IMG/VR virus record: IMGVR_UViG_3300037761_000122
Span: 1 to 46,046 of that record
Strand: one strand, 5' to 3'
Length of the DNA stretch: 46,046 nt
From: a virus
In this document: in pieces, positions 9,844-46,046 of the stretch
Numbering within the stretch: the first letter of the stretch is position 1
Layout: every line of letters starts with the position of its first letter
Translations under genes and position numbers: made by a program
Notes under the pieces: generated by a model
What the model was told of the DNA's origin: nothing
The model's database searches: none
The model's input: only the letters and a program-made list of their open reading frames with translations

Positions 9844-9857
9844 CGAATCAGCCGGCA

Positions 9858-9904: not shown

Positions 9905-10103
9905 CTAGGGTTTTCCGCGATCGGTGGGTCCGCTTCGTGCGCTTCGCGGGTCACATGCGGGCCAATTGCGCCCATGCTCACCTCCATTCCAGGTGACGGA
10001 CAGTGCCGTGGCGGGCGGGGGGAGGGAATGGCTCCCTTCCCCGGCGAGCGGGTGTTGTATCGGCTACGTCTAGCCGCCCCGCCCCCAGGCGTGAACCTCC
10101 AAG

Positions 10104-28982: not shown

Positions 28983-29425
28983 TACCCGCCCACTCCAGCG
29001 CCCACAGCGGCCCCAGGGACGCCACCGACCGCGAACCCTACCCCGGCACCCACCACGGAACCGATCGCGCTCATGAGCCGATTCTTGCGCTCGCGCTTCG
29101 CCTCGTCCTCCCTGAACCGCTGGTCGCGGTCCTGCGCCCGAAGTTCGCCGCCCTGGAGCCCTTGGCCGAGCGCGTTCTGGGTCGACAGGCTCGCGAACTG
29201 CCCGATCCGGTCCGTGTAGCTCCTGGACAGGTCGTCCAAGGCCACCTTGGTGCCGCCGGAGCGGAGCGCGCCGATCTCGTTCAGCCCGCCGAGCGTGGCG
29301 CCGATGTCTTTGAGCAGGTCCGGACGCAGCATCTCGCCGAACGCCTTGACGCCTTCGCGTGAGAAGTCCTGCGCGCGCTCGACGTCCCGGAACGGATCGT
29401 AGGTGGGGGTGCGCTGAATAGCCAT
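28982..29425 (-). CDS. Internal virion protein with Gly-rich hydrophobic C-terminus
   Basis: 147 aa. C-terminus AIGSVVGAGVGFAVGGVPGAAVGAGVGG. Confidence 0.45.
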   Translation of the reverse strand: MAIQRTPTYDPFRDVERAQDFSREGVKAFGEMLRPDLLKDIGATLGGLNEIGALRSGGTKVALDDLSRSYTDRIGQFASLSTQNALGQGLQGGELRAQDRDQRFREDEAKRERKNRLMSAIGSVVGAGVGFAVGGVPGAAVGAGVGG

Positions 29426-31344: not shown

Positions 31345-31826
31345 GATCTCGCCTGCACGGTGCGCATCTGTAGGTGAGCGGAGTAGAGGATCGGATCGAA
31401 CGCACCGTCACCGACCACGCGGATCTCGATCTCCTCATCCCCACCGTTCGGGGCCAGCACGGCCCAGCCCGAATCGGCCGTCTGTTCGGTCGCGTCCGTG
31501 ACGGTCGCTGTAGCGATGGCGATGGAGGTCGTCACGTTGTACGCCTGCACGGTCACGTCACCCGCCGCGGAGTTCTCGCCTCTCACGATGAGCCGCACGG
31601 AGTCGACGCCCGCGTCCTGAAAATCGACGGTCGTCCGGGTCGTCGTGAGCGCGGTACCGGCGCCGGTCGCCGCGTTTGTAACCGTGACGCCTGCCTGTTC
31701 GGACAGCAGCGTCAGAATCGCCAGGCTCGTGACCTTGCCGAACAGCGAATGCAGCAGGTCGGTGACGAGCTGGAGCGGGCCGGGCGGCTGGCCAACGTCG
31801 AAGTTGGCGACGGGCTCGGTTCTCAT
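31341..31826 (-). CDS. Tail structural protein
   Basis: 161 aa from the ATG at 31826 (ATGA overlap). Confidence 0.5.
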   Translation of the reverse strand: MRTEPVANFDVGQPPGPLQLVTDLLHSLFGKVTSLAILTLLSEQAGVTVTNAATGAGTALTTTRTTVDFQDAGVDSVRLIVRGENSAAGDVTVQAYNVTTSIAIATATVTDATEQTADSGWAVLAPNGGDEEIEIRVVGDGAFDPILYSAHLQMRTVQARS

Positions 31827-32245
31827 CGGTTCGATCTCCTGGGGATGAGCCACTGCCGAGACTTCCCGAGCTCGACCGCTGAATCAAAGTTCGACAGCTC
31901 GATCAGCACCTGGTGCGTCGTGCCGACCGACGACAGCGGAGCATCGACCAGCACGTTGTCGCCCGCCACGAGTGAGCGTGAGATCGTCTGCCCGGTCTCC
32001 TGACCGTCACGGTAGGGCGTGATCGCCACGTCGCACGCGCCGTTGACGTACACGGCCTGGACGACCCGCCGGAGCTTCGCGTACTCGCCCCCCTCGCTCC
32101 ACTCGAACGGGCTGGCGAGGATGCGCGGCGTGTAGTCGTTGCCGCCGACTCCCGCCTCGGTCGTCAGGTCCTTGGTGACCTCCTCATCGTCGAGCGTGAT
32201 GATGTCACCACCGTGCGCCAGACAGCCGTAGATCGGTACGCTCAT
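31823..32245 (-). CDS. Tail structural protein
   Basis: 140 aa from the ATG at 32245 (ATGA overlap). Confidence 0.5.
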   Translation of the reverse strand: MSVPIYGCLAHGGDIITLDDEEVTKDLTTEAGVGGNDYTPRILASPFEWSEGGEYAKLRRVVQAVYVNGACDVAITPYRDGQETGQTISRSLVAGDNVLVDAPLSSVGTTHQVLIELSNFDSAVELGKSRQWLIPRRSNR

Positions 32246-34050
32246 ATCTCGTCCGAACAGCCGGAGGTGAGATCGACCGTCGAGGTAGCCGAGTAGGTGC
32301 TGTTCGGGTTCGGCCATGCGACGTCGATGCTACGTGCCCGGTAGTTGAGCACCTGCCCGCACGCACGGTTCGTGTCGTAGATGCTGCCCGAGCTGCCGGT
32401 GGTCTGCCAGACCGAGTAGCCGCCGCCGTCAACCTGGCGCTCGATCGAGATCGACGTGCCGGGCGCGTTCTGCGCCACCGTGACCTCGATAAGCGGGCCG
32501 GGGCCGTCCTGCGCAGCCGAACAGCCTGGCGCCGCGATCAGCGTCTGCGCGATCGTCTCAGCCGTGTAGGAGCTCGTCACGCCGCCCTTACGGTGCCGGA
32601 CGCGCCAATAGTAGGATTCGTGATTCGTGCGGCCGGTGCGGGCGAGTGTGGCCACGGCTGCAGCCAGCACCGTGACGAGCGTCCACGTACCGCCCGTGCC
32701 CTTCTTCTCCCAGAACTCCGTCTCGCACGTCGCGTCGCCGTTCGTCCAGGACGCGGTATAGCCGGTCGTCGTCTCCAGACTCGTGACGGGGGTCGAGGGC
32801 GGAGCGGCGGGCGCGGTCGGTCCGCTGCCCCCTCCTCCACCTCCGCCGGACCCGAGACTGACAGGGGTCACGGGCGAGGCAAAGAACAGATCGGCGCCGT
32901 ACCTGTGCTCCGGCTGCCACACGTCCCTCGTCAGGTCCCACGCCCACACCGTCCACGGGTAGGTGTCGGAGCGGCCGGCTGCGGCCTCGACCGGGTGCAG
33001 CCCGAACAGCATGAGCCGACGCTGAGGGTGATAGCTGACCCACGCGGACTCCGTCTGGTCGATGCTCATCCACGAGCGTAGGCGCGCGCCCACCAGCAGC
33101 TCGACGTGGAACCCGTCGGTCCTGATCGGACCCTGGGCAGAGATGCCCCACCAGTAGCCTTCGGCGAACGTCAGCGCGTTCGGGTTCGTGATGCCGAGCC
33201 CCTTCGTGTTCGTCACGCGCGTGATCTGGTACTGCCAGCCCGCGTAGGCGCGCCCGAACCCGCTGACCCGGTACAGGTCGTCCGACTTCGCGACCAGCAG
33301 ATACGGCCCGCCCTTCCTCAGGGCACTTACCCGTTGGCCCTTCGCCCCGATGATCGCCCACGCGTCGATATCGAACCCGTCGGCCGCGTCCGGGCTCCGA
33401 CCGAGAAACGAATGCCGGAGGTACTCGGGCCGGTCACCGTCGCCTGAGTCCTCCGTGCCGTAGCCGGCAGCGAACAGGACGCCGTTGTACTCCTCGACGC
33501 AGTAGGGCAGAGGCGCGGCCGCCGCGCCGGCGCCGAACACGAACGTGCGGCGCGTGATTGTGCCCGCCGAGTCGATCGCGAGCATCTCGTTACGGGACGC
33601 GTAGGTCGCGGTCGCGTCGGCGATGTACAGCTTCTCGAATACCTCGGCCATGACGGGCCTGGCAGGGGTCGAAGCGTTGTCCCAGGAAGTCGAAGGTGAG
33701 GCGGTCAGGTCGTGGCGTGACGTGGCCTCCGAGCCGGTCGCGAAGTCCATGTCGACCGTGAGGCGGTACGCGTAATGCTTGTCCTCGGCGTCGCTCCAGC
33801 CGATCGCGAGCGCACCCACGTTGGTGAACGGCGCGAGCGCGCACACGTGGTCGACCGGGTCGCCCGCGTTGTCGTCCGTCAGGCTCTGCACGATCCTCGA
33901 GCCGCCTCGAGTGCGGAGCCTGCCCGCCGGCGTCGGTACGAGGTTCTCGCCCTCGGCCAGAGTGCCGGGCGCGAGCGTGCCGGGCTCGGCGTCCTCGGCG
34001 ATGCCGTGGACCCAGCCAGCTACGACGCGGGGGCGGACAGCGAGACGCAT
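32242..34050 (-). CDS. Large tail protein (nozzle/tubular-B-like) with poly-Gly linker and two FN3-like C-terminal domains
   Basis: 602 aa. Linker GSGGGGGGGSGPTAPAAPPSTP. Two ~90-aa Ig/FN3-like repeats at the C-terminus. The role assignment is positional. Confidence 0.45.
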   Translation of the reverse strand: MRLAVRPRVVAGWVHGIAEDAEPGTLAPGTLAEGENLVPTPAGRLRTRGGSRIVQSLTDDNAGDPVDHVCALAPFTNVGALAIGWSDAEDKHYAYRLTVDMDFATGSEATSRHDLTASPSTSWDNASTPARPVMAEVFEKLYIADATATYASRNEMLAIDSAGTITRRTFVFGAGAAAAPLPYCVEEYNGVLFAAGYGTEDSGDGDRPEYLRHSFLGRSPDAADGFDIDAWAIIGAKGQRVSALRKGGPYLLVAKSDDLYRVSGFGRAYAGWQYQITRVTNTKGLGITNPNALTFAEGYWWGISAQGPIRTDGFHVELLVGARLRSWMSIDQTESAWVSYHPQRRLMLFGLHPVEAAAGRSDTYPWTVWAWDLTRDVWQPEHRYGADLFFASPVTPVSLGSGGGGGGGSGPTAPAAPPSTPVTSLETTTGYTASWTNGDATCETEFWEKKGTGGTWTLVTVLAAAVATLARTGRTNHESYYWRVRHRKGGVTSSYTAETIAQTLIAAPGCSAAQDGPGPLIEVTVAQNAPGTSISIERQVDGGGYSVWQTTGSSGSIYDTNRACGQVLNYRARSIDVAWPNPNSTYSATSTVDLTSGCSDEI

Positions 34051-34059
34051 CGGGGTTCC

Positions 34060-34407
34060 CTAGTCGAGCGCCGTGTAGAGGATCACGTAGCCGTCCGTGC
34101 CGCCGGCTCCGGACGCCTGGAGCTCCGCGCTCACCGCCTCGTTGTTGCTACCCAGCAGCGCGACCGGGTAGTTCATGATGAACGGCCCGTTGCTGAAGTC
34201 CCAACGGTGCGTGATCCACGTGGTCGAGCCGTGCTTGATCGTCACGGTCTGGAACGTGCTGACCGCCGCGTCGTAGTGCGCCTCGACGCCGAGCACGAGG
34301 TGCTTCTGATTGGCGACCGCGGCTACCGTGGCCGTCGCTGTAGCGTTGTCGGCCGCAGCCGATTGCGTGGCCTTGCCCCTCAACAGGGGTGCGGTTCCGA
34401 TGGACAT
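34060..34407 (-). CDS. Small tail-associated structural protein
   Basis: 115-aa ORF with an AGGAG RBS. Confidence 0.55.
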   Translation of the reverse strand: MSIGTAPLLRGKATQSAAADNATATATVAAVANQKHLVLGVEAHYDAAVSTFQTVTIKHGSTTWITHRWDFSNGPFIMNYPVALLGSNNEAVSAELQASGAGGTDGYVILYTALD

Positions 34408-34632
34408 CTACAGTACTCCTAGCAAGAGAAACGCGAGAACGAACGAGGCGCGCCGGATGTGCGTGATGGCCCCCGACGTGCGGACAAGGCGGTCCGACGC
34501 GTCGAGTTCGCCTTCCTGGCCGGGTGCGCCGCCGCCGGGCTCGCCGGCTCCCGCCCACGCGTCTTCGTCCCACGTGTCGGCCGCCCACGTGTCGGCATCC
34601 CAGCAGCTTCCCGCGGATCCCGGAAATGACAT
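34408..34632 (-). CDS. Acidic Trp-repeat protein with C-terminal TM
   Basis: 74 aa from the ATG at 34632 (TAATG overlap). WDADTWAADTWDEDAW is encoded by a 13-bp direct repeat (34569..34581 and 34584..34596). Confidence 0.45.
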   Translation of the reverse strand: MSFPGSAGSCWDADTWAADTWDEDAWAGAGEPGGGAPGQEGELDASDRLVRTSGAITHIRRASFVLAFLLLGVL

Positions 34633-35546
34633 TAGGCTGGGCCCCACTCGGTGCCGACGGTGCCATCTCCAGTCAGCGCCGCATCGTTGATCGACTGTAC
34701 GTTCGCGTCGACCTGGCCGGCCACCGTGAACGTGAGCGAGTCCGTCTTGGCCTTGATCGCGTCCACCACGGTGTCAACGTCCGCGATCTCGTCGTCCACC
34801 GTCTGAAGCGCAGTGGCCGTCGCGAGCCCGTTCTGGAACGCGGTGACCGCGGTGGCGTTCGGCGCGTCGACCAAGTTCATCTGCGCGCCCGAGATTGCGA
34901 GCGGCGAGCCGTTACGAGTCGTGGCGTCGAACCCGGTCAGGAAGAACAGGGTGCCGTCCCCGGGCGTGAAGTCCATCGCGCCACCGTCGTCGATCTTGTT
35001 GACTGTGGCGATGAGTGTCGAGTTCACGAAGCCGGTGATTCGGACGTGATTCTGGTTGCCGTTGCTGGCTACCGCGAGCGCCGTCAGTCCCTTGAGCGCG
35101 TCGTCGGCTGTGTTGGCATCCACGACGCCGGTCAGGTCAATCGCGGTAGCCGTGTGTGAGCCAGACGCGCCGAGCACATGGCCCGCGCCGAATAGGGACT
35201 CACCGAGGGCGCGTTGGGCGGCTTCCGCAACCGTCTCGATCTGGAACTGCCCGACCTCTTGTCCGACGACGGACACGCTATCGACCGTTCCGGCTTCGAT
35301 CACGACGGTGTAGTGCGTACCGGCTGCGTAGCCGTTCGCGGTGGTGGCGACGACGGCGACGTTGTTGAATCCGGTCTTGCTGTCGTAGTCTACTGTGAGC
35401 GTGAGTCCCGCAGTGATCTGCGTCAGACTTCCGTCTACGTAGATCGAGATCGACGGCGTGCCCGCAAGCGCGAACGGCGCACCCGTCGTGAACTGGCGGG
35501 TGTTGAACTTGAGGTTGAACGTCGAGCCGAGGGCTACTTTTCTCAT
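34632..35546 (-). CDS. Tail fibre protein
   Basis: 304 aa. T/A/G/V-rich beta composition. C-terminal VDAIKAKTDSLTF...VDANVQSINDAALTGDGT...W pattern seen in phage fibres. Confidence 0.6.
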   Translation of the reverse strand: MRKVALGSTFNLKFNTRQFTTGAPFALAGTPSISIYVDGSLTQITAGLTLTVDYDSKTGFNNVAVVATTANGYAAGTHYTVVIEAGTVDSVSVVGQEVGQFQIETVAEAAQRALGESLFGAGHVLGASGSHTATAIDLTGVVDANTADDALKGLTALAVASNGNQNHVRITGFVNSTLIATVNKIDDGGAMDFTPGDGTLFFLTGFDATTRNGSPLAISGAQMNLVDAPNATAVTAFQNGLATATALQTVDDEIADVDTVVDAIKAKTDSLTFTVAGQVDANVQSINDAALTGDGTVGTEWGPA

Positions 35547-35561
35547 TGCCTGTTCCTTGAG

Positions 35562-36314
35562 TTATCCTGCGAGGCCACCGTGGTCGCCCGCCAATCCGCC
35601 TGGTCCTGCTAGTCCACCCGGTCCTGCGAGCGCGCCCATGATCCTGCCGCCACCTGCCGCTGCGGGCCGAATCGCGATCGCGCACATGCAGCCCATGTCG
35701 GCGGAAGTGCCTGTCGCGTGAACGGTCGGGTCGCCCGTCGCAGTCTCGGACGTGCCCAGGCCCTTCACGTGTGCGTTCGTCAGGGCGCCCGAGTTCGTGG
35801 CGTAGTCTTGGGTGTCGGAGGTCGTTGGGTCAGCGCGATCGGCACGCTCCGACGTGGCCCCGAGGACGACGTCGCCGGACGCCGTTCCCGCGAGGCTGGT
35901 GGTCTGCGCACCGTTCGTGGCCGACGAGAATCCCGTGGCGACCACGTCCTCGCCGTCGTCCCAATAGTCCGCGGTAAGGATGTACTCGACCTCGTCGGCA
36001 CCCAGGTCGATCGCAACGGCGCTACCGCTCATGGAGCCGACTTCCGTCGCATCCAGGTGGTAGATCCCCGCCGCAGTCGTCGCCGCGTCCGTCAGCCTGT
36101 TTCGCGTCTCGATGTTGACCGCAACGGCGACACCGCCCACGGTGGCCGTGGCAGGTAGGATGCTATCGTCACGCGCCGCCGGTCCCGTCGAAGTTCTCAG
36201 GTGGGCGCGGAGCGTGATCGCCGTGGCGGTGCCGGGAACCGTCAGCGTCTCGTTGATGATGTTGTCGAACGAGGCGAGCACTCCGGTGAACGTTTCGCGG
36301 GAGATGAAGGCCAT
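35562..36314 (-). CDS. Tail fibre-like protein with C-terminal GGLAGP repeats
   Basis: 250 aa. C-terminus GALAGPGGLAGPGGLAGDHGGLAG. Confidence 0.55.
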   Translation of the reverse strand: MAFISRETFTGVLASFDNIINETLTVPGTATAITLRAHLRTSTGPAARDDSILPATATVGGVAVAVNIETRNRLTDAATTAAGIYHLDATEVGSMSGSAVAIDLGADEVEYILTADYWDDGEDVVATGFSSATNGAQTTSLAGTASGDVVLGATSERADRADPTTSDTQDYATNSGALTNAHVKGLGTSETATGDPTVHATGTSADMGCMCAIAIRPAAAGGGRIMGALAGPGGLAGPGGLAGDHGGLAG

Positions 36315-37607
36315 TCAGCAGCTCCCCGGCTCGCAGCCGCTGATATACAGCTCACGCTGGTACCAGTAATGCTCGTTGTCTGCCGCATACTGCGAGTGGT
36401 ACATCTCGAAGCCGTCGAGCAAGCGCCCGGAGAAGTTCGGATCGCTCCAGTCCAGGCCACCCCACGGGCTGTCGTTGACCTCTGTGCCGTTGACCCAAAT
36501 GCGCAACTCGCCGTCGCCGGCGCCGTTCGCGCTTTCGGCCTGCCTCCAGTATTCGACCGTCCACTCGGTGTCGAATGCGGGCGGGAAGGCGTAGCCCGCA
36601 CCCGTGATATAGAACTGGTGCGGATCGGGACCAGGTAGACCGCCGTGCTGGACCGCCCATAGGTCGCCACCAGAGCACGTCGCGGAATAGAACTCGTTCG
36701 CGCCCTCGCCGATCTTCGCCGTCGGCTCGACGCCGTAGTAATTGAGCTTGATTCCGTTGAGTTCGCCCTGGCACGGAGAGAGTCCTGCTGTGGGGATGTA
36801 GAGCCGGAACATGATGTACTGTTGCTCCAGACCACCACCGACGTAGCCGACGCCCCCGAAGTTGCTACCGAGTCCCGTGAAGCGATTCAGCTTGCCGCCC
36901 CATCCACCACCCGACGTTCGGTGTGTGAACTTGACCGAAAACCCTGAGCCTGTCGGATTGCCAGCGTCAGCGACCACCTCGGCATTGGCCTCGTAAGACG
37001 ACACGTCGAACCAGCCGGGTTGACCGCCACCCGCACGACGAGGGAGCGAGTCGAACGTGCCGGGGTTGTTCCACACGGTCACGAACCCCGCGGGCTCGTT
37101 CGGATGCAGTCCAGAAACAGTCATCTCGACACCGAGCAAGGTGTCCGGCGCCGACCACCCTCCAGACGTGCCCTTGTAGCCCGTCACGATGTCGACGACC
37201 GCGCCGGAATCCGCCGCGATCGAGTCACGCTGGATCGCGCCGAGCGTGTCGCCGAAGTACTGAGGCGCGGAGAAGTTGCCGCCCGACGTGTCCACAAGGA
37301 TGTACGCTGAGTCCTGCGCGTCACCGCCAGACCCTACGTACGTTCCGAGGTCGATCCAGAGACTGTCGCCCTGGGTACGGTAGACGGTCGCGATGGTCGT
37401 CGGGGCGTTCGGGGCTCCTGCCGGGGGCGCGCCACCACCAGGGTCGCCAGGACCCGATTGACCGGGTGCGAGCACCGCCCCGCCGAATCCACCAAAGAAC
37501 GAGAGGGCGCCAAACGTCAGCGCCGTAGTCACGGACGCGGTCAGGCCCGCGATCACCGGCCACCTCACCGCGTCATGGCGGGCACGGCGCTCAGGGAGAT
37601 TGTTCAC
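36315..37607 (-). CDS. Virion-associated concanavalin-like polysaccharide-lyase-type protein (paralogue of 22274..23278)
   Basis: 430 aa. N-terminal hydrophobic segment with the SFFGGFGGAVLA motif. The C-terminal ~260 aa align block by block with the secreted paralogue. Confidence 0.65.
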   Translation of the reverse strand: MNNLPERRARHDAVRWPVIAGLTASVTTALTFGALSFFGGFGGAVLAPGQSGPGDPGGGAPPAGAPNAPTTIATVYRTQGDSLWIDLGTYVGSGGDAQDSAYILVDTSGGNFSAPQYFGDTLGAIQRDSIAADSGAVVDIVTGYKGTSGGWSAPDTLLGVEMTVSGLHPNEPAGFVTVWNNPGTFDSLPRRAGGGQPGWFDVSSYEANAEVVADAGNPTGSGFSVKFTHRTSGGGWGGKLNRFTGLGSNFGGVGYVGGGLEQQYIMFRLYIPTAGLSPCQGELNGIKLNYYGVEPTAKIGEGANEFYSATCSGGDLWAVQHGGLPGPDPHQFYITGAGYAFPPAFDTEWTVEYWRQAESANGAGDGELRIWVNGTEVNDSPWGGLDWSDPNFSGRLLDGFEMYHSQYAADNEHYWYQRELYISGCEPGSC

Positions 37608-39007
37608 GCTACACTCCGTCCCGAGTGGGTGTAGTGCGTGAACGCGTAGCCTTTCGTCCCGCCATTGAGTTGGGTACGCACGCGTGCTTCTGGGTAGCCG
37701 ACGCCGTAGAGGTAGTTCACCAGCGGGCGGGCGGCTTCGTGCGGTCCCTCGAAGTACACCCAGTTGTTGTCCGAGTGGTTATCCGCAAGGTATTTCAGCC
37801 GGGTTGCGGCACGGAGCGCGGCCGAGTCCGACCATAGGTGCGCATCACCGTACCCGAGCCTTCGGATGATCTCGACCGTCGCGAGCGCGGGTCCGAGCGC
37901 CTCCTCCACGTAGCGCAGCGTCGTGGCGCCCGGATAGACGGTCCACTGGTCGCCCGAATTCGGGATCGTGCCCTTGGCCGTGGTCCACGTCACGTCGCCC
38001 GTCCCAATGTTGTGGGTGGCGACAACGCGATTCACGCCATCAGCCGTGAAGTACAGCCGCTCGCCGACGATCGACGTTGTGGGCGCGTTCGCTCCGAGGT
38101 TTGCAGCCGTCGTCGTGCCGTCTGACGGGAAAGTCCCGCTCCAGAACGAGTCGTCGCGTCGCATCTCCTCCGGCTGGATGCCGTCAAAGTCGTGACCGAA
38201 GCGCGTCACGCCTTGGCCCACGATCCCACGCAGCGTGGCTGAGTCGGCCGGGTCTTCGTGCCACGACAGATCCGGCGAAGCGGTCGGTCCCCACAGCGCT
38301 TCCGCGCCACCGCGGGTTCTGTCACCCAACCAGAACGCGACCTCCTCCACGATGCCATCGAGCTCCGCCGTGTCGCCGATGTAGGCGTACGTGATGATGC
38401 AGGTCCACCGGCAGTAATTCCCGATGTTGTTGGGCCTGGCGTAGGCTCCGTCCCTGACACTGGTCATCCCGCCGCCGACGTAGGATTCCGTGAGCGCACC
38501 TTCCGCGAAGGCCGAGAAATCGGCGTGCAGCGTCGGGTTGTTGACCCTGATGTTGCACATGTCAGCGGCCAAGACGTACGCCCCAAGGTTGCGGGCGTAG
38601 CCGAGTGCTTGGGTGTTGTCCTTCGGATATCCTGCGTCGATCAGGTCTTGCAAGTACGCCTCGACCTTCGTCCGGTAGGACGCCGTGCCGGTCCGGAGGT
38701 ACACGAGCCCACCCGAGAGTGCGTAGAGGTTCGTCGTCGAATCCTGGTCGTCCATCGCAGCGGCGGGCCACGTCGCATCCGCCGTCGCGAGCATGTCCGT
38801 CCAGTCGTCTCCGCTCATCGGGCGGGTGTCGATTTCCGCTTTCGAGATCCACAGGCCCAAGGGCCTCGGATCACTTGGCGCATAGCGAGCATTCCCCGCC
38901 AGCACCGGGCCGGCGAAGCCACCAAAGAAAGAGCGCGCACCGTAGTCGAGGGGCTCAAGGAGCTTGCTCACGCTTCCGCTCCCGCCAGCGTTCCACGATC
39001 TCGTCAA
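37604..39007 (-). CDS. Alginate-lyase / heparinase-like (alpha/alpha toroid) polysaccharide lyase
   Basis: 467 aa. WTDMLATADATWP...LVYLRTGTASYRTKVEAYL...ARNLGAYVLAAD resembles an Alginate_lyase-type N-domain. N-terminal SFFGGFAGPVLA motif. A start at GTG ~38969 is also possible. Confidence 0.6.
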   Translation of the reverse strand: MTRSWNAGGSGSVSKLLEPLDYGARSFFGGFAGPVLAGNARYAPSDPRPLGLWISKAEIDTRPMSGDDWTDMLATADATWPAAAMDDQDSTTNLYALSGGLVYLRTGTASYRTKVEAYLQDLIDAGYPKDNTQALGYARNLGAYVLAADMCNIRVNNPTLHADFSAFAEGALTESYVGGGMTSVRDGAYARPNNIGNYCRWTCIITYAYIGDTAELDGIVEEVAFWLGDRTRGGAEALWGPTASPDLSWHEDPADSATLRGIVGQGVTRFGHDFDGIQPEEMRRDDSFWSGTFPSDGTTTAANLGANAPTTSIVGERLYFTADGVNRVVATHNIGTGDVTWTTAKGTIPNSGDQWTVYPGATTLRYVEEALGPALATVEIIRRLGYGDAHLWSDSAALRAATRLKYLADNHSDNNWVYFEGPHEAARPLVNYLYGVGYPEARVRTQLNGGTKGYAFTHYTHSGRSVA

Positions 39008-39119
39008 TCGCCGTATCCGCGCGTGCCTTCGCCTTCTCCGACGCCCGCAGCACGACCGTGGCGGCAGCCGAAGCGGCCGCGACCTTCGCGGCGGTCAGGA
39101 CGGGGCGAACCAGCTTCAT
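38955..39119 (-). CDS. 54-aa Ala-rich peptide
   Basis: MKLVRPVLTAAKVAAASAAATVVLRASEKAKARADTAIDEIVERWRERKREQAP. ATGA overlap with the connector stop. Confidence 0.4.
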   Translation of the reverse strand: MKLVRPVLTAAKVAAASAAATVVLRASEKAKARADTAIDEIVERWRERKREQAP

Positions 39120-39769
39120 TCGAACGCGTCCGCGTAGATGCGGGAGCGCGAGTTCTGCACGCCGCGCTGCCCCACATGGCTGATGAGTTGTGCCCGCCGG
39201 TCGAACCAGCGGTCTCGGAGATCGGGCGGGGTGCGCTGTTCACCACCGAGCGCGAATGCGTAGATGGCTTCCAGCGCGATCACGTCGTGGAACCGAAGCG
39301 GGATCCCGCCAGGCACGTCCGAATCGCTCGTGAGCAGCGCGGGCCACGTCTGGTAGCGCATCCACACGTCCTTGCCGGCTTCGGAGTCGGGTGAAGTCTC
39401 CAGCACCGCCGCGGAGTCGATGCCGGTAACGACGAAGTGGTCAGGGCCGGCGTCTCTGAGCTCGTCCAGGCGCACTTCGTGGAGCGTCAGCCCTTGGGCG
39501 TCGGTCCAACGCACTTCGAGCCACCGGGCGAAGTCCTCGAGAGCCGTGGCTTGGGTCGCGAACGTGTGGAGGTGCGAGGTCGACGAGTCGGCCGTCAGCG
39601 TGACGGTCCGAGTGTTGTAGCCGGGGTTCTGGCGGTTGATGTCCGTGACGAGCGAGTCGCACGCTTCTTGGATGACAGCTTCCAGGACATCGTCGGAGTA
39701 CGCCGGGTCGTCCGTCTCGACGGCCAGCAGTCGGCGGATGCTCGTCTTGATCGCGGAGCGGCTCGCCAC
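39116..39769 (-). CDS. Head-tail connector/adaptor protein
   Basis: 217 aa. DDVLEAVIQEACDSLVTDI resembles gp6-like connector N-termini. Position lies between the head and tail genes. Confidence 0.5.
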   Translation of the reverse strand: MASRSAIKTSIRRLLAVETDDPAYSDDVLEAVIQEACDSLVTDINRQNPGYNTRTVTLTADSSTSHLHTFATQATALEDFARWLEVRWTDAQGLTLHEVRLDELRDAGPDHFVVTGIDSAAVLETSPDSEAGKDVWMRYQTWPALLTSDSDVPGGIPLRFHDVIALEAIYAFALGGEQRTPPDLRDRWFDRRAQLISHVGQRGVQNSRSRIYADAFE

Positions 39770-39770
39770 G

Positions 39771-40073
39771 TCACGCCGCCCGGCTAGCCCGCGCGTGCGA
39801 CATGCACAGCCCGTCCTCGATCGGCTTGCCCTTGCACGGCTCGCCGGCCTTCGTCGTGGCCGTGCAGCGATCTGTTGGCTTCGCCCGTGCCGCGTCGTTC
39901 TTCGCGTCGGTCAGGTCGCGCTCCAGCTTCATCCACCGGGCGAAGCATTGCTCGGGGTTCTCCCTCCACTGCTTGCCGTTGCGGAAGAACTCGACGAACG
40001 ACTTGATGGGCGCGTCCGGATACTCGACCTCGACGTAGTTCTGCGAGCCCCAATCCCACTCGGATAGCTTCAC
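39771..40073 (-). CDS. Hypothetical protein with C-terminal CxxxxKxGxxC...CxxH motif
   Basis: 100 aa. RCTATTKAGEPCKGKPIEDGLCMSHA. Confidence 0.55.
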   Translation of the reverse strand: MKLSEWDWGSQNYVEVEYPDAPIKSFVEFFRNGKQWRENPEQCFARWMKLERDLTDAKNDAARAKPTDRCTATTKAGEPCKGKPIEDGLCMSHARASRAA

Positions 40074-40555
40074 ACGGTCCCCCTGGAGTCCTTGATGATG
40101 CGCCTGGCCCTACCTGCCACCGTTCCCGTCTGATGGCTCGCCAGCGCGCCCCTGAGCCGCCTACCGCGGCCTCCGGTGTCCGTCGTCATGTCGGCGAACG
40201 CCTGGCCGGCCTCGCGGTAGCGCCGCTTGCCCTCCACCGCGTTCTCCTTGATGCGCCGCTCGATCTCCCTGCGCGGTGAGCCAGCCCCGTCGTAGGGGTT
40301 GCCGACGAACGTCTTGGCGAGGTTGGCGAGCGCTTCCCTCATCGCGTCGTCGTCGAGCTCCCGGAACGGATACAGGCCCGTCACCGGATCGACCGGCGCC
40401 GTGAACACGCCCCAGAACTGCGAGCGCGCGATCCCGTCACCGCACGTCAACAGAAACTCCCAGCGTCCGAGCCCTTCGTTGAACCGGATATCGTCCTGCT
40501 CGAATCCGGTCAGGTCGCGAAGGGCTCGGACCCAGGAAGCTTTCGGCTCTCTCAC
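40070..40555 (-). CDS. Hypothetical head-module protein
   Basis: 161 aa from the GTG at 40555. The N-terminal two thirds of the 318-aa ORF is a shadow frame over the beta-helix gene. Confidence 0.45.
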   Translation of the reverse strand: MREPKASWVRALRDLTGFEQDDIRFNEGLGRWEFLLTCGDGIARSQFWGVFTAPVDPVTGLYPFRELDDDAMREALANLAKTFVGNPYDGAGSPRREIERRIKENAVEGKRRYREAGQAFADMTTDTGGRGRRLRGALASHQTGTVAGRARRIIKDSRGTV

Positions 40556-40557
40556 GC

Positions 40558-41487
40558 TTAGTTCGGCCGTCCAGAAGCCGTCCCGGTAGCGGTCGAAGAC
40601 GAGCCTTCGGCCTGCGTCTTGTTGTCGCAGAAGAACACGTTCGTGGCGATGGCGAACTTCGCCGTGCTGAAGACCGTCGTGTGGAACTTGTTTCCGACGA
40701 CGAGCCCGGTGGTGCTGGTGTCGTCGATGTCCAAGAATCGCGTCGGCTCGGTGCCGGAAACGGCCGAAAAGACGTTGTACGCGATCTCCCAATCGTTCAC
40801 GAACCCGCCCTGCACGATGCAGTCGGTCGCAATCTTTGCGAACCTGTTGCGTGCGACGTAATACTGACCGCCGGGGTTCGAGCCGCCCTCGAACGTGACG
40901 TTGAGTCCGTTCGTGCAGTTGTTGATCAGGTTGTCGACGAGGCGGATGTCGAAGACCGTATTGGCTGCGTCTCCCACACCATTGGCGATGTGCACCGCGT
41001 TGGTGCCGCCGTCGCCGATCTTGCAACCCACGGCCTCGAAGCGCCGCATGTTGCCGGTGAGTAGGAGTCCGTCACCGGTCGATCTAGGCGCGAGGTTCAG
41101 GTTGTACAGCCCGACCTCGCTGACCCCGTCGACCGTCATCGGCGTCTTGGTGGCGCCCGCCGACGAGGCCGTGATCCTGATTGAGTGACGCGGGCCGACA
41201 CCGATCAACGACACCTGCGCCTTGGTGACGATGACGTCCTCGTTGTACTCGCCGGGCGCACCGTAGATGGTGTCGCCGGCTGAGGCCAGGTCGTGCGCCG
41301 CCTGCCATGACGCGAGCGCTTGCCCCCACGACTTGCCGTCGTGGCTGCCGCCGTCCGCGCCCGTCTTCGTGACGAACCACTGGTTGCCTGACGGCGCAAC
41401 GTTCAGCTTGCTCTCGATCTCACGAGCCGCGGCCAGGTTGCCGATCCCGTCGCGGAGCCATCCGAATGTGCTTGTGCTGAGTCCCAT
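40558..41487 (-). CDS. Right-handed beta-helix protein encoded directly after the major capsid gene
   Basis: 309 aa with a GGAGGA RBS. WFVTKTGADGGSHDGKSWGQA...AGDTIYGAPGEYNEDVIV (DUF1565/pectin-lyase-fold N-cap) plus NxxxNN-type coils. Confidence 0.65.
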   Translation of the reverse strand: MGLSTSTFGWLRDGIGNLAAAREIESKLNVAPSGNQWFVTKTGADGGSHDGKSWGQALASWQAAHDLASAGDTIYGAPGEYNEDVIVTKAQVSLIGVGPRHSIRITASSAGATKTPMTVDGVSEVGLYNLNLAPRSTGDGLLLTGNMRRFEAVGCKIGDGGTNAVHIANGVGDAANTVFDIRLVDNLINNCTNGLNVTFEGGSNPGGQYYVARNRFAKIATDCIVQGGFVNDWEIAYNVFSAVSGTEPTRFLDIDDTSTTGLVVGNKFHTTVFSTAKFAIATNVFFCDNKTQAEGSSSTATGTASGRPN

Positions 41488-41544
41488 TTTTCTAGGTCCT
41501 CCGGCGGGCGGACCCGAGCCCGCCCGCCGTGTTCAGGGTCAGGG

Positions 41545-42807
41545 TCAGGCCGCCACCCGCTCCAGCGCGGCCACGTCGTTGAGGTCCTCGATCACGCCGT
41601 TCGCGTTCCGCTGCACCGTGCAGAGCTGATGGTACTTGCGGATGTAGCCCTCGATCGCGTCCTTGTCGGTCACGCGGTCGAACGTCGCGCCGTCCATGTC
41701 GGCCCACTCGGTACCGACCAGGTCCGCCGTCCGGAACGCGCTCGTGTTCAGGAAGAACATGCGCGAGGACGGGCAGTCGAGGTCCCCGATGACCGGGATG
41801 CTTCCGCCCGCGTGGATCACGGCAGCGATGGGCTTGTAGCCGCCCTTCAGCTGCACGTCCTGGCCGTCGAGCCGCCGAAGCGGCAGGAAGATCTCGGAGT
41901 ACTTCAGCACGATGCCCGGCCTCGTCACGATGAGGTTCGGCATCTGGCGGCTGCGGCTCCGGATCGTCTCGATCATCTGCATGACCAGCGAGTCGCTGAT
42001 GTCACGCAGGGTGCCCGAGTTCGCCATCACGACCGACTGCCAGCCGAGCGTGATCGGGATCGTCTCGAACGTGTTGGACGCCTCGACCGACGCGAGCAAG
42101 CCCAGCACCTCGCCGTCCGTGATGTTGTCCGTGTCCGAGGTCGAACGGGTCACGTAACCCGCGTCGGTCGTGGTAACCGTCGAGTCGACCGTGATCTGGT
42201 TGTTCGTGTGGTCGACGGCGGTGACCGTACGGCGTCCGATCAGCGTCGTGCCGTCGGACTCGTAGAACGCGACCGCGTCACCCACGTACAGGTGCCGGGT
42301 GCCGAGCCCGCCGTTCGTGACGGCGTAGTCGGTGCCGAGCGTCTGGGTCGCGCTCGCGCCGTCCGCCGTCGCGGGGATGCTGGCCAGGAAGCCGTCGCCC
42401 CCGCCGAACAGCTGGCGGTTGACCTCCAGGTCGTGCGCCTGGAGCCGGTCCGACATCGTCTCGGCCAGAGCGGGCCGGAACGAGCCGGCCTGACGCTTAG
42501 TGACCTCGATCGCGAGGCCGTCGAGCGCCATCCTGGTGTAGGTCCTGACGACCGTGGCCTCGCCCTGGTCGTACTTGCCCTCGTCGGCCGCCGGCAGCGT
42601 CTTGTTCGCGCCCGCGTTCGCGGACCCGCCACCGATTTGCAGCTTGACGCCGAAGATCCACTTCTTGCCGGTGAAGTTCGCGTTTTCGAGCCTCGCGAAC
42701 TGCGACTTGAGCGCCGTCTCCGGGTTGGTCTGGTTCACCCAGACGTTCGTGAAATAGTCCTTGGCGAGGTCCGTCAGCTCGGTCAAGGTGGTTGGCGTAA
42801 CAGCCAT
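41545..42807 (-). CDS. Major capsid protein (HK97-fold type)
   Basis: 420 aa with a GAGGTAG RBS. Follows the scaffold gene. Composition and length are typical. Confidence 0.8.
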   Translation of the reverse strand: MAVTPTTLTELTDLAKDYFTNVWVNQTNPETALKSQFARLENANFTGKKWIFGVKLQIGGGSANAGANKTLPAADEGKYDQGEATVVRTYTRMALDGLAIEVTKRQAGSFRPALAETMSDRLQAHDLEVNRQLFGGGDGFLASIPATADGASATQTLGTDYAVTNGGLGTRHLYVGDAVAFYESDGTTLIGRRTVTAVDHTNNQITVDSTVTTTDAGYVTRSTSDTDNITDGEVLGLLASVEASNTFETIPITLGWQSVVMANSGTLRDISDSLVMQMIETIRSRSRQMPNLIVTRPGIVLKYSEIFLPLRRLDGQDVQLKGGYKPIAAVIHAGGSIPVIGDLDCPSSRMFFLNTSAFRTADLVGTEWADMDGATFDRVTDKDAIEGYIRKYHQLCTVQRNANGVIEDLNDVAALERVAA

Positions 42808-42842
42808 GATCTACCTCGTTGTCATTCTCCGTTGGCGTGTGC

Positions 42843-43856
42843 TCACGAGCGGCCCGCGCGGACCCATTCCGAGTTCCTCTCATGGAGCTCGTTGGGGCCG
42901 AACTTCGTGACGGGCTTGGGCGTGCTCACCGGAGCGCCACTGCTTGTGGCGACCCTCGGCGTCTTCGCCCGGTTCAGTGCGTGAGCGGTGGTCTCGTTGT
43001 GCTGGTCCGCGGCTTTCGAGGCGTTCAGTGCCTCGACCTTGGCCGTCAGCTCAGCGAGTTGCTTCTGGAGTGGCGATGACGCTCTTTCGAGGTAGTCCGC
43101 TTCCGTCTTGAAAAGCCGCTCGACTTCGCGGCGGTCCAGCTGCGCTCTCCCGTTTTGCAGGAGTTGGCCGTACTGCTCGCGGACCCTGCCAGCGTCCACG
43201 TTGGGGAACTCGCCCGCCAGCTCCTCGACCCACCCTATGGCGGTCTGGGAGGCTTCCTGGACGATGTGAGAGTCCCGGTCCGCGAGTAGTGCGTCACGCT
43301 CGGCCTCGGTTTCCCGGCTGGCCAACGCAGTGTCGACGTGCTTGCGGTACATCGGGTTGTTCTCGTACTGGCGAAGGTGCTCCTCGAACGCGACCGCGCC
43401 CTTGGGGTCGGTCAGCGCGGAGCGGATCTCCGCTTCCTTCTCCTCGACGTACTTGGCGCGCGCGTCCATCCTCGCGCGGTCGGCGTCGAACCTCTCGCGC
43501 TCCGTCTGGAACGCCCTGCGCTGCGTACCGAGCTCGTCGGTCTTGATCCGGTAGTCGCGCTCCATCATCCCGCGCTTCAGCAGCTCGGCGACCGGCACAT
43601 ACTCGACTTCGTCGCCGCGCTTGAGCGGCAGGGCAACGTTCTCGGGCAGCTGGTAGGGCTCCTCGCCCATGCGGCCCTCGATGTACGCCTGAACGACCTC
43701 TGCGGGCGTCTCCGTGGCCTCGACCGCTACCGACTCGGAGGCTTCGACTGGCGGCGTCTCGGCGACCTCAGTGACCTCTACCGGTGTCTCGGTCGTGACC
43801 GGCTCATCTACGGGCGTGCCGTCGGCGATCCAGGTGCTCTCGTCCATGGGGGGCAT
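42843..43856 (-). CDS. Scaffolding protein
   Basis: 337 aa. Acidic N-terminus with TPVE-type repeats, long charged coiled-coil-like body. Lies between the portal and capsid genes. Confidence 0.7.
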   Translation of the reverse strand: MPPMDESTWIADGTPVDEPVTTETPVEVTEVAETPPVEASESVAVEATETPAEVVQAYIEGRMGEEPYQLPENVALPLKRGDEVEYVPVAELLKRGMMERDYRIKTDELGTQRRAFQTERERFDADRARMDARAKYVEEKEAEIRSALTDPKGAVAFEEHLRQYENNPMYRKHVDTALASRETEAERDALLADRDSHIVQEASQTAIGWVEELAGEFPNVDAGRVREQYGQLLQNGRAQLDRREVERLFKTEADYLERASSPLQKQLAELTAKVEALNASKAADQHNETTAHALNRAKTPRVATSSGAPVSTPKPVTKFGPNELHERNSEWVRAGRS

Positions 43857-43878
43857 CGTGGCTTCCTCTCGGGTTGGC

Positions 43879-45771
43879 CTATGCGGCGGTGTTGGTTGGG
43901 GCGTTCTGCTCGGCTTCCAGGGCCATCATCTGAGCGGCCTGGAGACGGATCATGGACTGGTGTTCGTTGATGTGGATCGCGACGAGCTGCCGGATCGGCC
44001 ACGGCTTCGTGTCGTCCAGCAAGATCTCCTCGTGCAGCCGGATATGCGTCTCGTGGTCGTCGTTCATCGGCAGCAGGTAGGGCGAACCGTCGTGCGGGTG
44101 GATCAGCGCGGGCAGGCCAGCGAGCGGCGTGCCTTCGGGCGCTTCGACGACCGCGCATTCCTGGCGCTCGATGGCGAGGTTTTCGGTCCGGGCGCGAGCG
44201 TAGTGGCGGGTCTCGGACTCGAACACGCCATCTACACCGCGGCCGAGGTCCATCAGCAGCAGCCCTTCACGGGGCGCGATGTACTGCTTGTCCATCATCC
44301 GCTCGACCTCGGCGTTGAACGCCGCCTGCGAGGTCGGGCGGAAGCCTTCCAGGTCGATCGTGATCGTCTCGGGGTCGGGCAGGTCGGAGCCCTTGACGCT
44401 CTCGACTAAGAAGCCGAGGTCGGGCCGCTCGACGGGGATCCAGCGCTGCTCGTGCTCGCCGTAGCCCCAGCGCGCGATGCCGAGCGTCTGGCGGCCCCAC
44501 CCGATCAGGCTCTTTTTCAGCGTCTTGACCGAGTCGTGGAGCTGGCCGTTCTGGCTCTCCTGGAGCAGCTGGATGGCTACACCGGACTCGACGCCGGTCG
44601 GTACCTGACCACGTGCCACCTCGTTGAACGCGCCGATCGTGTACATGGCCTGCTCGGCCTTCTCGATCAGCCGCCAGCGATCGGGGGGCACGCTTCCGGG
44701 AGGGACACGCTGCACCAGATCGCCGATGCTCCGGTTCGCGAGCGCGGATTGCATCGGGATCTTGATGTGCGCCGCGCTCAGATTCGTGATCTGCTCAGAC
44801 AGCCCCGGCACGTCGAACATCGCCCACTGCCCTGGACCCGACAGCGCCATCTCCTCGAGGATCAGCGACCACTGCTTGTTCAGCACCTTCTGCGGATGCA
44901 CGAGGTCGTCGACCGTCGGGCGACCGTAGCCGTCGAAGGGCCTGCGCTCGTCGTAGATCGGCACGTACGGGACGAAGCCCTGGGGCAGCACGTCGTCGTA
45001 GAGCAGCTCGTCGCCACCGATCACGACCAGGCGTCCCTCGGGCAGCGTATCGGACGGCGCCTCCCAATACTCACACAGCAGCGTCAGCTCTTTGTCGGGG
45101 ATCTGCTTGCCGTCCCGGCCCGCCATGAGGTCGTTGCCGCTCGTCATCTCGGCGCGGTGGCCTACCGTGCGAATCAGGCTCTCGAACTGCTTGAGCTGTG
45201 CGATGCCGGCGACCGTCTGCACCTTCTTGGCCGCCTCGCCGTAGCGTTCCTTGACGACCGAGATCGGTACGACCTCGGAGTCGATCAGCCAACGGAAGCC
45301 CTCAGCGGGGAGTAGTCCGAACGCGTCCGGGTTCAAGCGGATGTTGAACAACGTGCGGACCGCGGTGTCGGCATCCCCCGGCCGGTAGGTGAACGCGCCG
45401 TCGAGCTGTTCCAGCGGCTCGCCCGTCTCTGGGTCCGCCAGCGGCTCACCTTCGGGGCTGACCGGGTAGTTTTGCACCTGGCCCGTGAGCGGGTTCTGGA
45501 TCTGCACCGTCGCCGGCACGAGCGTGCCGATGTCAGGGTTCCAAAACTGCTTGAGGTAGGACGCTCCGCACGCGAACCCGAGCCAGAGCCCGTATCGCAG
45601 CTTGGCCTCCAGTTCCCCACCGTTCCACCGCGCTTCGAGGAGGTTCGTCGCGATCGTCGCCTTGTCCCTGGCCTCGTGCGCGTTCGAGTCGGGGACGGCG
45701 CGCCACGAGAGCTCGGAGGAGAGCAGCCGTTGGAGGCGGGCACGCAGGATCGGCCGGATGTAGTTCATCAC
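43879..45771 (-). CDS. Portal protein (listed from the first canonical start; the coding signal continues upstream to 46035)
   Basis: 630 aa from the GTG at 45771. The same frame stays open with high GC3 for 88 more codons up to a TAG at 46036..46038, with no ATG/GTG/TTG in that stretch. Confidence 0.8.
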   Translation of the reverse strand: MMNYIRPILRARLQRLLSSELSWRAVPDSNAHEARDKATIATNLLEARWNGGELEAKLRYGLWLGFACGASYLKQFWNPDIGTLVPATVQIQNPLTGQVQNYPVSPEGEPLADPETGEPLEQLDGAFTYRPGDADTAVRTLFNIRLNPDAFGLLPAEGFRWLIDSEVVPISVVKERYGEAAKKVQTVAGIAQLKQFESLIRTVGHRAEMTSGNDLMAGRDGKQIPDKELTLLCEYWEAPSDTLPEGRLVVIGGDELLYDDVLPQGFVPYVPIYDERRPFDGYGRPTVDDLVHPQKVLNKQWSLILEEMALSGPGQWAMFDVPGLSEQITNLSAAHIKIPMQSALANRSIGDLVQRVPPGSVPPDRWRLIEKAEQAMYTIGAFNEVARGQVPTGVESGVAIQLLQESQNGQLHDSVKTLKKSLIGWGRQTLGIARWGYGEHEQRWIPVERPDLGFLVESVKGSDLPDPETITIDLEGFRPTSQAAFNAEVERMMDKQYIAPREGLLLMDLGRGVDGVFESETRHYARARTENLAIERQECAVVEAPEGTPLAGLPALIHPHDGSPYLLPMNDDHETHIRLHEEILLDDTKPWPIRQLVAIHINEHQSMIRLQAAQMMALEAEQNAPTNTAA

Positions 45772-45919
45772 GATCCGGACGCGGCCCTCGGGCGCGGGCG
45801 CTTCCTTCCACGCCTTATCCCTCAGGTTCCAATCGATGTGCTGGCGACCGTCGGCGAACAGCAGATTGTGGGTCGCGCGCTTGAAGCGCTGGAGCGCGGC
45901 AGCGTCGCCATCGGCGAGT

Positions 45920-46046
45920 AGCCGCTTGACGTAGTCGGCTACTTCGGCGGGCTTGGAACCCGGCGCGGGGTAGTGGTCCCCGCGTGTCTCTTTGAGTCTG
46001 GCACGAACGTCAGGCGCGGGAGGCGCCTGGTTCAGCTAGAGTCTGA
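45920..46046. repeat. Terminal direct repeat, copy 2 (circularisation overlap)
   Basis: Exact 127-nt identity with 1..127. Confidence 0.97.

Follow-up and report, generated by a model that had tools for sequence, protein, structure and literature searches.

Common descent of an N-terminal segment shared by two adjacent lyase-type genes of an uncultured phage, and its possible origin in a membrane-anchor-like address

The phage genome represented by the IMG/VR record IMGVR_UViG_3300037761_000122, whose full length of 46,046 nucleotides (nt) is the window analysed here, carries on its minus strand two adjacent genes, one for an alginate-lyase-like protein (hereafter the lyase) and one for a 430-residue protein, which encode closely similar, glycine-rich hydrophobic segments near their N-termini. 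A first-pass annotation, made from the sequence alone, had proposed that this segment is an exchangeable module for mounting different depolymerases on one tail, with a virion-docking adaptor, a membrane anchor or a cleavable leader as its candidate functions. The comparisons presented below indicate that the lyase gene is a chimera, which owes the segment to common descent, its start being a shortened version of a 5' end from the gene family to which its neighbor belongs, and that in this parent family a signal-anchor-like membrane address is the best reading of the segment. The principal features of the locus are as follows:

37604-39007, minus strand: longest open reading frame (ORF) of the lyase, 467 residues from TTG 39007
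37604-38971, minus strand: likely extent of the lyase gene, 455 residues from GTG 38971
37607-38854, minus strand: lyase catalytic domain, beginning LWISKAEID, with 81.9% nt identity to L004, an unrelated phage carrying the same lyase cassette
38897-38941, minus strand: motif in the lyase, GARSFFGGFAGPVLA
36315-37607, minus strand: gene of the 430-residue family, whose GTG start overlaps the upstream stop as GTGA
37467-37511, minus strand: motif in the 430-residue protein, GALSFFGGFGGAVLA, the conserved half of its hydrophobic segment and a mosaic boundary

The two copies of the motif, GARSFFGGFAGPVLA and GALSFFGGFGGAVLA, are identical at 12 of 15 residues, and a BLASTP comparison of the two proteins recovers the shared segment with E=2e-4. 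The local alignment score of 88 was reached by none of 1000 shuffles (mean 44.8, standard deviation 6.8, maximum 80), and the string FFGG occurs at just these two sites in all six frames of the window, so that the common N-terminal segment of the first-pass annotation is borne out. Across the 15 motif codons there are 10 nucleotide differences, of which 7 fall at third positions (binomial p ~0.02), and this bias indicates conservation of the match at the protein level, as opposed to recent copying of the neighbor's DNA. A recent duplication of the neighbor's motif was also rejected in view of the 10 differences in 45 nt, most of them synonymous, and of the greater proximity of the lyase sequence to the type b alleles of the family (see below). 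The lyase copy has three non-conservative replacements, L to R, G to A and A to P, at positions conserved in the family. A hidden Markov model (HMM) of the N-terminal module, searched against 1.84 billion representative proteins, matched only the small family of the 430-residue protein and the lyase of the window, and the idea of a general plug-in system fails on this result. A word-indexed protein search with the short N-terminal alignment was empty, the motif DNA pattern found just two chance matches in metagenome contigs and a single contig (L005) among viral contigs, and the 185,579 reference genomes held no prophage copy of the module. A string nearly identical to the motif, FGALSIFGGFGG, lies inside a transmembrane (TM) helix of a cellular multipass membrane protein.

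The most likely start of the lyase is GTG 38971 and not TTG 39007, because GTG 38971 is preceded at 7 nt by a ribosome-binding site (RBS; GGGAG), because the source's own gene call (P0001) is 455 residues long and thus begins there, and because the same start is used in the closely related phage L003, whose backbone homology to the window (93%) reaches 38968 and which begins a different, 113-codon gene at this position. TTG 39007 was rejected as the true start, being without an RBS and overlapping a conserved 54-codon gene by ~50 nt in another frame. The length of 467 residues originally given is therefore probably to be corrected to 455, while the placement of the motif inside the protein stands, the motif being residues 11-25 of the shorter product. 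A fusion of the 54-codon gene with the lyase by frameshifting was likewise dismissed, as there is no slippery site and the analogue of the 54-codon gene in the phage L006 is a separate ORF with its own stop. From its RBS onward the 5' part of the lyase gene divides into the following elements:

38953-38983, minus strand: initiation region and first six codons (MSKLLE), homologous to the family 5' ends (MSNLPE)
38898-38952, minus strand: 55-nt motif patch, directly after a deletion, encoding PLDYGARSFFGGFAGPVLA
38870-38897, minus strand: 28-nt junction, in frame (GNARYAPSD), unlike the L003 backbone, the family genes and the L004 cassette
38858-38860, minus strand: alternative start TTG, where the motif-less homologue P0003 has its ATG start

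Between the end of the L003 homology at 38968 and the beginning of the L004 cassette homology at 38853 lie 114 nt that are part of neither. The initiation region, GGAAGCGTGAGCAAGCTCCTTGAGC, agrees with the family consensus GGAAGCGTGAGCAATCTTCCTGAGC at 22 of 25 bases in a gapped alignment, and the GGAAGCGTGAGCAATCTTCCTGAGC-type site is unique in the window at 3 or fewer mismatches, with 0 expected by chance. Relative to the family N-termini the lyase copy then shows an in-frame deletion of 24 codons, which has removed RQGESRTVEILREARWPLIAASCA, that is, the basic/charged flank and the first half of the hydrophobic segment. The motif patch that follows the deletion has 78% nt identity to the family gene of L003, a type b allele. 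We take these alignments to show that the lyase gene is a chimera sharing the segment by common descent, and that its first 74 coding nt, together with the RBS, are a shortened copy of a family 5' end.

The same comparisons show that the site between the 54-codon gene and the family gene serves as a cassette slot, a recurrent insertion point at the start of the family gene, since the cargo of L003 is flanked by a repeat of the GAGGAAGCGTGA start region; this cargo (3646-3987) is the 113-codon gene, which has two predicted TM segments and stands in place of the lyase. They also show the lyase cassette to be a horizontally mobile unit of the alginate-lyase type, which comes with a ccGAGG element and a start position of its own. 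Elsewhere this lyase domain is found without the motif, at 81-84% identity: P0003 of L004 has it without any N-terminal extension, P0002 has it behind a different N-terminus of 146 residues, and in L005, a phage from the same sample, it forms the C-terminus (84% identical) of a 966-residue protein (93-2993) whose N-terminal part is large and repeated and after which a 755-residue protein is encoded. The L005 protein is probably a fiber-mounted version of the lyase. Read from its 5' end, the chimera consists of the RBS, GTG and first six codons of a family 5' end, the in-frame deletion of 24 codons and the 55-nt patch, which the 28-nt unrelated junction joins to the mobile lyase cassette. The earlier idea of an exchangeable module is accordingly upheld as far as the mosaic boundaries fall exactly at the motif and in its other occurrences the lyase domain has different N-termini or none; it gives way in that the lyase copy is not a free-standing adaptor, consisting as it does of a truncated family 5' end with a 24-codon deletion. 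This copy is most likely an inherited remnant of cassette slotting, which would act at most as a weak tag for export or association, and it is unlikely to have been purpose-built as a tail-docking adaptor.

The alternative start at TTG 38860 would leave the motif outside the lyase, with the upstream 111 nt as a decaying remnant and the shared segment as a dead scar. At this point L004 reads ccGAGGtctATG where the window reads ccGAGGcccTTG, and the two agree in start position and in the ccGAGG element; over the 38 junction codons the GC content at third codon positions (GC3) reaches only 0.71, as against 0.82 in the lyase domain, and the non-conservative changes at conserved motif positions would be in keeping with decay. 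We nevertheless regard translation from this site as highly improbable. GTG 38971 has by far the better RBS and spacing, overlaps the end of the upstream gene in the manner of the coupled genes of this region and corresponds to the conserved slot start of L003, and the frame is open for ribosomes that initiate there. A 95-nt untranslated gap would also be unusual in a tightly packed operon, and the concentration of 7 of the 10 differences from the neighbor at third codon positions speaks against loss of coding function.

The parent family was characterized by comparing the proteins P0030-P0037 and the loci L001-L003, L005, L006, L010 and L013. In the window its member has the following parts:

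37464-37607, minus strand: N-terminal module, with a basic flank MNNLPERRARHDAVR (residues 1-15) and a weakly hydrophobic stretch WPVIAGLTASVTTALTFGALSFFGGFGGAVLAP (residues 16-48)
37113-37463, minus strand: Pro/Gly linker (residues 49-70) and FN3-like domain (residues 71-165), conserved, in two allelic types
36318-37112, minus strand: C-terminal β-jelly-roll domain, lyase-like (Foldseek, low-confidence model), variable among relatives

Four parts are common to the family, namely the charged start (MSNLPER...), a hydrophobic segment of 28-33 residues that ends in GALS(F/I)FGGFGGAV, the Pro/Gly linker and a domain of ~95 residues which is termed FN3-like on its sequence pattern, with no model match. 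Four glycines, G33, G39, G42 and G43, are invariant. Sequence and length differ among the family members in the first half of the hydrophobic segment, with composition and Gly pattern kept, and the Gly-rich second half is fixed. Across P0030-P0037 the N-terminus and middle domain are retained and C-terminal domains of several types have been swapped, the mosaic boundaries falling at the motif, at APNAPT and at LHPNEPAG; with L003, for instance, the window regains homology at precisely 37511, where the motif of the 430-residue protein begins. One locus, L001, has two family genes in tandem.

Several properties of the family segment are those of a membrane protein. Its best 19-residue windows have mean Kyte-Doolittle values of 1.54-1.83 and Hessa sums of +1.4 to +2.9 kcal/mol (1.61 and +2.3 kcal/mol in the 430-residue protein), ~60% of its residues are G, A, S or T, and at 28-33 residues it is long enough to span a membrane. 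It is flanked upstream by basic residues and downstream by the Pro/Gly linker, the type a flank (ERRARHDAVR) being net positive and that of type b having a net charge of ~0. The distant relative L006 has, ahead of the motif helix, an additional, strongly hydrophobic helix of 21 residues and a K/R-flanked loop, a stretch that is evidently coding since its GC3 in that frame is 0.94; this pair of elements would keep the catalytic part on the outside. The parent segment is thus best read as a signal-anchor-like membrane address with a composition like that of signal-anchor-release (SAR) domains. As an N-in/C-out signal-anchor it would insert into the infected cell's cytoplasmic membrane, so that the FN3-like domain and the lyase-like jelly-roll would come to lie in the envelope. 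The N-terminus of the lyase, which retains 13 hydrophobic residues and whose best 19-residue window scores 0.63 (Kyte-Doolittle) and +10.7 (Hessa), cannot span a membrane, because the basic flank and first hydrophobic half have been lost. Two other types of export signal were considered and set aside: a Tat signal, as RR occurs in the type a N-termini only and F-L-K is missing, and a lipobox at the Cys of type b, which is not conserved in type a.

The resemblance to the SAR domains of P1 Lyz and of R21 of phage 21 lies in a weakly hydrophobic N-terminus rich in Gly, Ala, Ser and Thr on a phage enzyme that degrades the envelope, in the upstream basic residues and in a catalytic domain outside the membrane, the last of these being predicted for the 430-residue family. 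The family segment differs in being longer (28-33 residues) and even less hydrophobic than the reference SAR domains, in having an FN3-like and a polysaccharide-lyase-like domain as its cargo in place of a peptidoglycan hydrolase, and in its gene being situated among structural genes and not beside a holin. We would thus describe the segment as working like a SAR domain, without assigning it to the SAR class, which has been reviewed in the context of phage endolysins (PMC6116005).

The membrane reading gains further ground from a paralogue of the family, p334, encoded elsewhere in the window:

22274-23278, minus strand: p334, with a Sec-type signal peptide (residues 1-20), a helix, a (D/E)P-rich spacer and a jelly-roll domain
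23309-23839, 23949-24236 and 24211-24714: the genes beside p334, endolysin-like and two holin-like

This protein begins MRRYMLWALALVVLAAPVEA, with a putative cleavage site between it and the following QV; its spacer is TonB-like, and its jelly-roll domain is the one found in the 430-residue family (33-41% identity to the family C-termini). The gene is immediately preceded by one endolysin-like gene (SKHGTGEAMD...HVH) and a pair of holin-like genes with multiple TM segments. Its homologue in L005 (79% identical) likewise has a canonical signal peptide and lies next to an endolysin, being 3' of a phrog_465 endolysin gene and directly 5' of a 54-codon gene and a family gene. From this arrangement p334 looks like an accessory lysis or egress enzyme at the place usually taken by spanins, and it would appear that the phage exports an enzyme paralogous to the 430-residue protein by an ordinary signal peptide from its lysis cassette. 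Of the functions initially suggested for the segment, a membrane anchor or cleavable leader is therefore the one that fits best, on account of the chemistry of the segment and the existence of this Sec-exported paralogue.

A second N-terminal segment spanning both enzyme classes links p334 with L001. The lyase-like gene of L001 (2793-3890) has its start in exact register with the N-terminus of mature p334 (23114-23215 in the window), the common segment being VRxRxFxRAAETQxSKV, and it has no hydrophobic targeting part. It seems to constitute a second, independent case of a lyase gene originating without the targeting part, and as such points the same way as the chimera described above.

To the explanation as a whole, a truncated copy acquired by descent from a family whose N-terminus is signal-anchor-like, we assign a probability of about 0.45. 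A number of observations weigh against it. The hydrophobicity of the family segment is marginal, and AlphaFold2 (AF2) predicts no helix for the N-termini, the 430-residue model being poor overall with a predicted local distance difference test (pLDDT) score of 45, at which its N-terminal coil is uninformative. In the window, L003 and L006 the family gene sits between virion structural genes as defined by PHROGs or adaptor-like genes, and it is always followed 3' by a LamG-like and a fiber-like gene. A conserved N-terminus combined with a hypervariable C-terminus is the classic pattern of receptor-binding proteins, Ig-like and FN3 domains of phages are typically borne on virion proteins, and the same lyase domain terminates the large fiber-like protein of 966 residues in L005. 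The open in-frame junction and the mostly synonymous differences could mean that the tag of the lyase is still under selection. Finally, short hydrophobic N-terminal docking peptides are known in podoviruses of the K1-5/SP6/KP34 type (PMC6872550).

These last points bear on the view that the segment docks enzymes on the virion. According to it, the N-terminal peptide, consisting of the motif and perhaps the MSNLPE start, would attach the enzymes to a tail component or a neighboring protein, so that different depolymerases share one tail and the lyase keeps just the docking core. The known model is provided by the gp37 adaptor of K1-5/K1E/SP6 and by Klebsiella phages KP32/KP34, in which adjacent depolymerases share a short N-terminal peptide and their catalytic parts are swapped horizontally; the peptides, of 7 to ~30 residues, occupy the extreme N-terminus of β-helix tailspikes and dock on a T4gp10-like domain or adaptor, and some are as short as 7-11 residues (PMC6872550). 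The motif and six codons common to the two adjacent enzyme genes of the window are reminiscent of this arrangement, and it is exactly these two most conserved pieces that the lyase retains after the deletion. Moreover, both genes belong to the structural block and follow the adaptor-like gene, the trio of family gene, LamG-like gene and fiber-like gene is conserved across divergent phages, the C-termini are swapped as in receptor-binding proteins, and the segment common to L001 and p334 would be a second short N-terminal sequence spanning both enzyme classes.

Against docking, neither protein has a known match among tail proteins, adaptors or branching domains, and none of the neighboring proteins is a T4gp10-like or gp37-type partner in Pfam, PHROG and PDB-sequence searches, which are sequence methods that a fold-level relative could escape. 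The segment differs from the docking peptides in being membrane-anchor-like and, in the lyase, a deletion remnant; it bears the signature of a membrane protein, and in L006 a bona fide TM-like helix is present in addition. Three family-conserved positions are mutated in the lyase copy, and the module is found in no other phage protein among the 1.84 billion representatives. The paralogue p334 cannot join virions assembled in the cytoplasm, because it is Sec-exported. We consequently judge virion docking to be unlikely, though it would turn the motif into a new and unusually hydrophobic docking peptide.

If the family segment is a signal-anchor, its shortened copy in the lyase could conceivably have become a cleavable Sec-type leader, with a hydrophobic h-region of 13 residues (SFFGGFAGPVLAG), a new Arg in front of it and a Pro and a VLA/GNA site behind, from which the lyase would be released to the periplasm or envelope. 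All three replacements, L to R, G to A and A to P, shift the sequence toward the n/h/c layout of signal peptides, signal-anchors are known to become cleaved signals when their h-region is shortened, all cellular homologues of the lyase are secreted or lipoproteins, and the phage does export the paralogous enzyme p334. Yet the h-region is weak, with a mean Kyte-Doolittle value of 1.40 over 12 residues compared with 2.65 for the signal peptide of p334, its n-region has as many acidic as basic residues, and other phages have versions of the lyase that lack the motif altogether. On these grounds a functional leader appears distinctly improbable.

A further variant of the membrane reading would have the Gly-rich N-terminus belong to a tail or ejection component that enters the host membrane during infection, much as tape-measure or ejection proteins do with their hydrophobic segments. 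Known virion proteins include some with TM-like segments, the genes are syntenic with the structural module, and two other late proteins, p147 and p250, end in glycine-zipper-like tails. An FN3 domain with a hypervariable lyase-like domain is unlike the architecture of known ejection proteins, however, and the positive-inside layout and Pro/Gly linker better fit a resident bitopic membrane protein, for which reasons we hold this variant to be very improbable.

For the catalytic part of the lyase, neither Pfam (E<=0.01) nor PHROGs has a match with the protein itself, and profile and single-sequence searches of PDB sequences were empty; 19 of its 24 aligned homologues match PF05426 (Alginate_lyase; best E=2.8e-9). 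The AF2 model has a pLDDT of 77, exceeding 90 in the helical core, with residues 1-28 disordered. The top 35 Foldseek matches in PDB are lyases of the polysaccharide lyase (PL) families PL17, PL38 and PL5 and one chondroitinase entry (best E 2.2e-4, probability ~1.0), heparinase II is matched as well, and no fold match in BFVD is significant. The model thus firmly supports an α/α-toroid polysaccharide lyase type. The invariant columns of the lyase family include an RPNN motif (N181, N182), Y197, R272 and Y354.

The toroid lyases of known structure or family (PF05426, PL5 AlgL of the A1-III type, PL17, PL38 and heparinase II) resemble the lyase in its predicted fold, from which it departs by an identity of ~11% to solved structures, by reaching no Pfam threshold and by an insert of 72 residues. 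This insert, modeled with low confidence (residues 272-343; 37943-38158, minus strand; LGANAPTTSIVGERLYFTADG...THNIGTGDVTW), is missing from the cellular homologues and is 33-35% identical to part of fiber-like proteins of L005 (12111-12530) and L013 (12657-12908). The cellular homologues carry signal peptides or lipoboxes, and the closest of them comes from a Gemmatimonadetes metagenome-assembled genome; the hosts of this phage group are possibly Gemmatimonadota. Baculovirus ODV-E66, a chondroitin lyase, is a viral α/α-toroid enzyme with a hydrophobic anchor sequence at its N-terminus. It offers an analogy only, with a non-significant fold match (E ~1.6); it also differs in being an envelope protein of a eukaryotic virus.

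For the 430-residue protein the assignment is more tentative. It has no match in Pfam or PHROGs, and its AF2 model, poor as it is, has an all-β C-terminal half. Foldseek aligns this half, in the low-confidence model, with PL14 vAL-1 (3a0n; E=3.5e-8), PL36 Aly36B (6kzk), the glycoside hydrolase (GH) family GH131 and ulvan lyase, and two homologues give sub-threshold Pfam matches, to PL14 at 16.9 bits (cutoff 27) and to PF14099 (Polysacc_lyase) at 15.1 bits (cutoff 29.9). Its best fold matches, at a pLDDT of 45, are therefore with the jelly-roll enzymes typified by PL14 vAL-1 of Chlorella virus and PL36 Aly36B, alongside PL7/PL13/PL28 and GH16/GH131, and it may tentatively be considered a PL14/PL36-like jelly-roll acting as a lyase, hydrolase or binding domain. 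The proposal that the two genes join the common segment to different catalytic folds thus holds, firmly on the side of the lyase toroid and provisionally on that of the jelly-roll.

Depolymerases are usually seen as tail-mounted enzymes with swappable catalytic parts, and both modular depolymerase genes and SAR-type anchors are known themes. What this locus displays, nucleotide by nucleotide, is a foreign lyase cassette entering a resident 5' end and inheriting part of its N-terminal address. Were the signal-anchor interpretation true, these phages would deploy polysaccharide-degrading enzymes while still within the infected cell, one of them through Sec export and the other as a membrane-tethered form, which would amount to a little-documented route to the clearance of capsule or exopolysaccharide at egress, or to the destruction of receptors, and would extend the SAR-type principle beyond endolysins. 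The small size of this family of uncultured phages limits the immediate impact. In a more speculative extension, which we think doubtful, the phages of this group would run, within the infected cell, a "depolymerase arm" of their late program that sends enzymes to the envelope by graded addresses, comprising the signal peptide of p334, the SAR-like Gly-zipper anchor of the 430-residue family and the truncated tag of the lyase; the GALSFFGGFGG helix would self-associate and thereby co-assemble the captured with the resident enzyme, giving a plug-in system based on the membrane and not on the tail.

The genomic setting is that of a phage of 66% GC. An exact direct overlap of 127 nt joins the ends of the window (1-127 = 45920-46046), the usual signature of an assembler, which suggests a complete, circular assembly of ~45.9 kb. 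The late genes are on the minus strand throughout and include a P22-like portal, a scaffold protein, the major capsid protein, an adaptor-like protein of 217 residues, a pectate-lyase-type tailspike and the terminase. Among GenBank phages there is no tblastn match for the lyase, the 430-residue protein or p602, and no DNA match for the window half 30000-46046, hence no cultured relative of the phage at the DNA level; the major capsid protein is only ~24-27% identical to capsids of Arthrobacter and Microbacterium phages. The genes look co-transcribed, because a scan for promoters and terminators found nothing exceeding chance.

Upstream of the cassette slot lies a short gene, below the size limit of the default ORF list, which has counterparts in other loci:

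38955-39119, minus strand: 54-codon gene, in ATGA overlap with the adaptor-like gene; GC3 0.80; 92% conserved in L003 and L005
3498-3659 of L003, 9635-9787 of L005 and 9691-9828 of L006: counterparts of the 54-codon gene, the L006 analogue having 45 codons

Its product is basic, Ala-rich and helical, and its 3' end contains the RBS and start of the next gene, that is, of the gene in the slot. In four loci a gene of 45-54 codons stands directly 5' of the family gene or of the cassette slot.

Several other proteins of the window deserve brief mention. The 250-residue protein encoded downstream of the family gene (35562-36314, minus strand) ends in a Gly-rich tail, GALAGPGGLAGPGGLAGDHGGLAG, which is kept in its L001 and L006 homologues together with a variable N-terminal domain, a mirror image of the 430-residue family; its L013 homologue matches Laminin_G_3. 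The 147-residue protein downstream of the tailspike (28982-29425, minus strand) ends in a glycine-zipper tail, GAGVGFAVGGVPGAAVGAGVGG, has weak matches to Bacteriocin_IIc and phrog_594, and may be an ejection protein or a membrane-active virion protein. Right after the capsid gene is encoded a 309-residue protein (40558-41487, minus strand) with a β-helix-like repeat pattern and no match in Pfam or PHROGs; its identity to the L003 homologue, over the N-terminal third, is only 46%. The early region contains two large ORFs with an HNH endonuclease (9178-11085 and 14510-15775, both on the minus strand).

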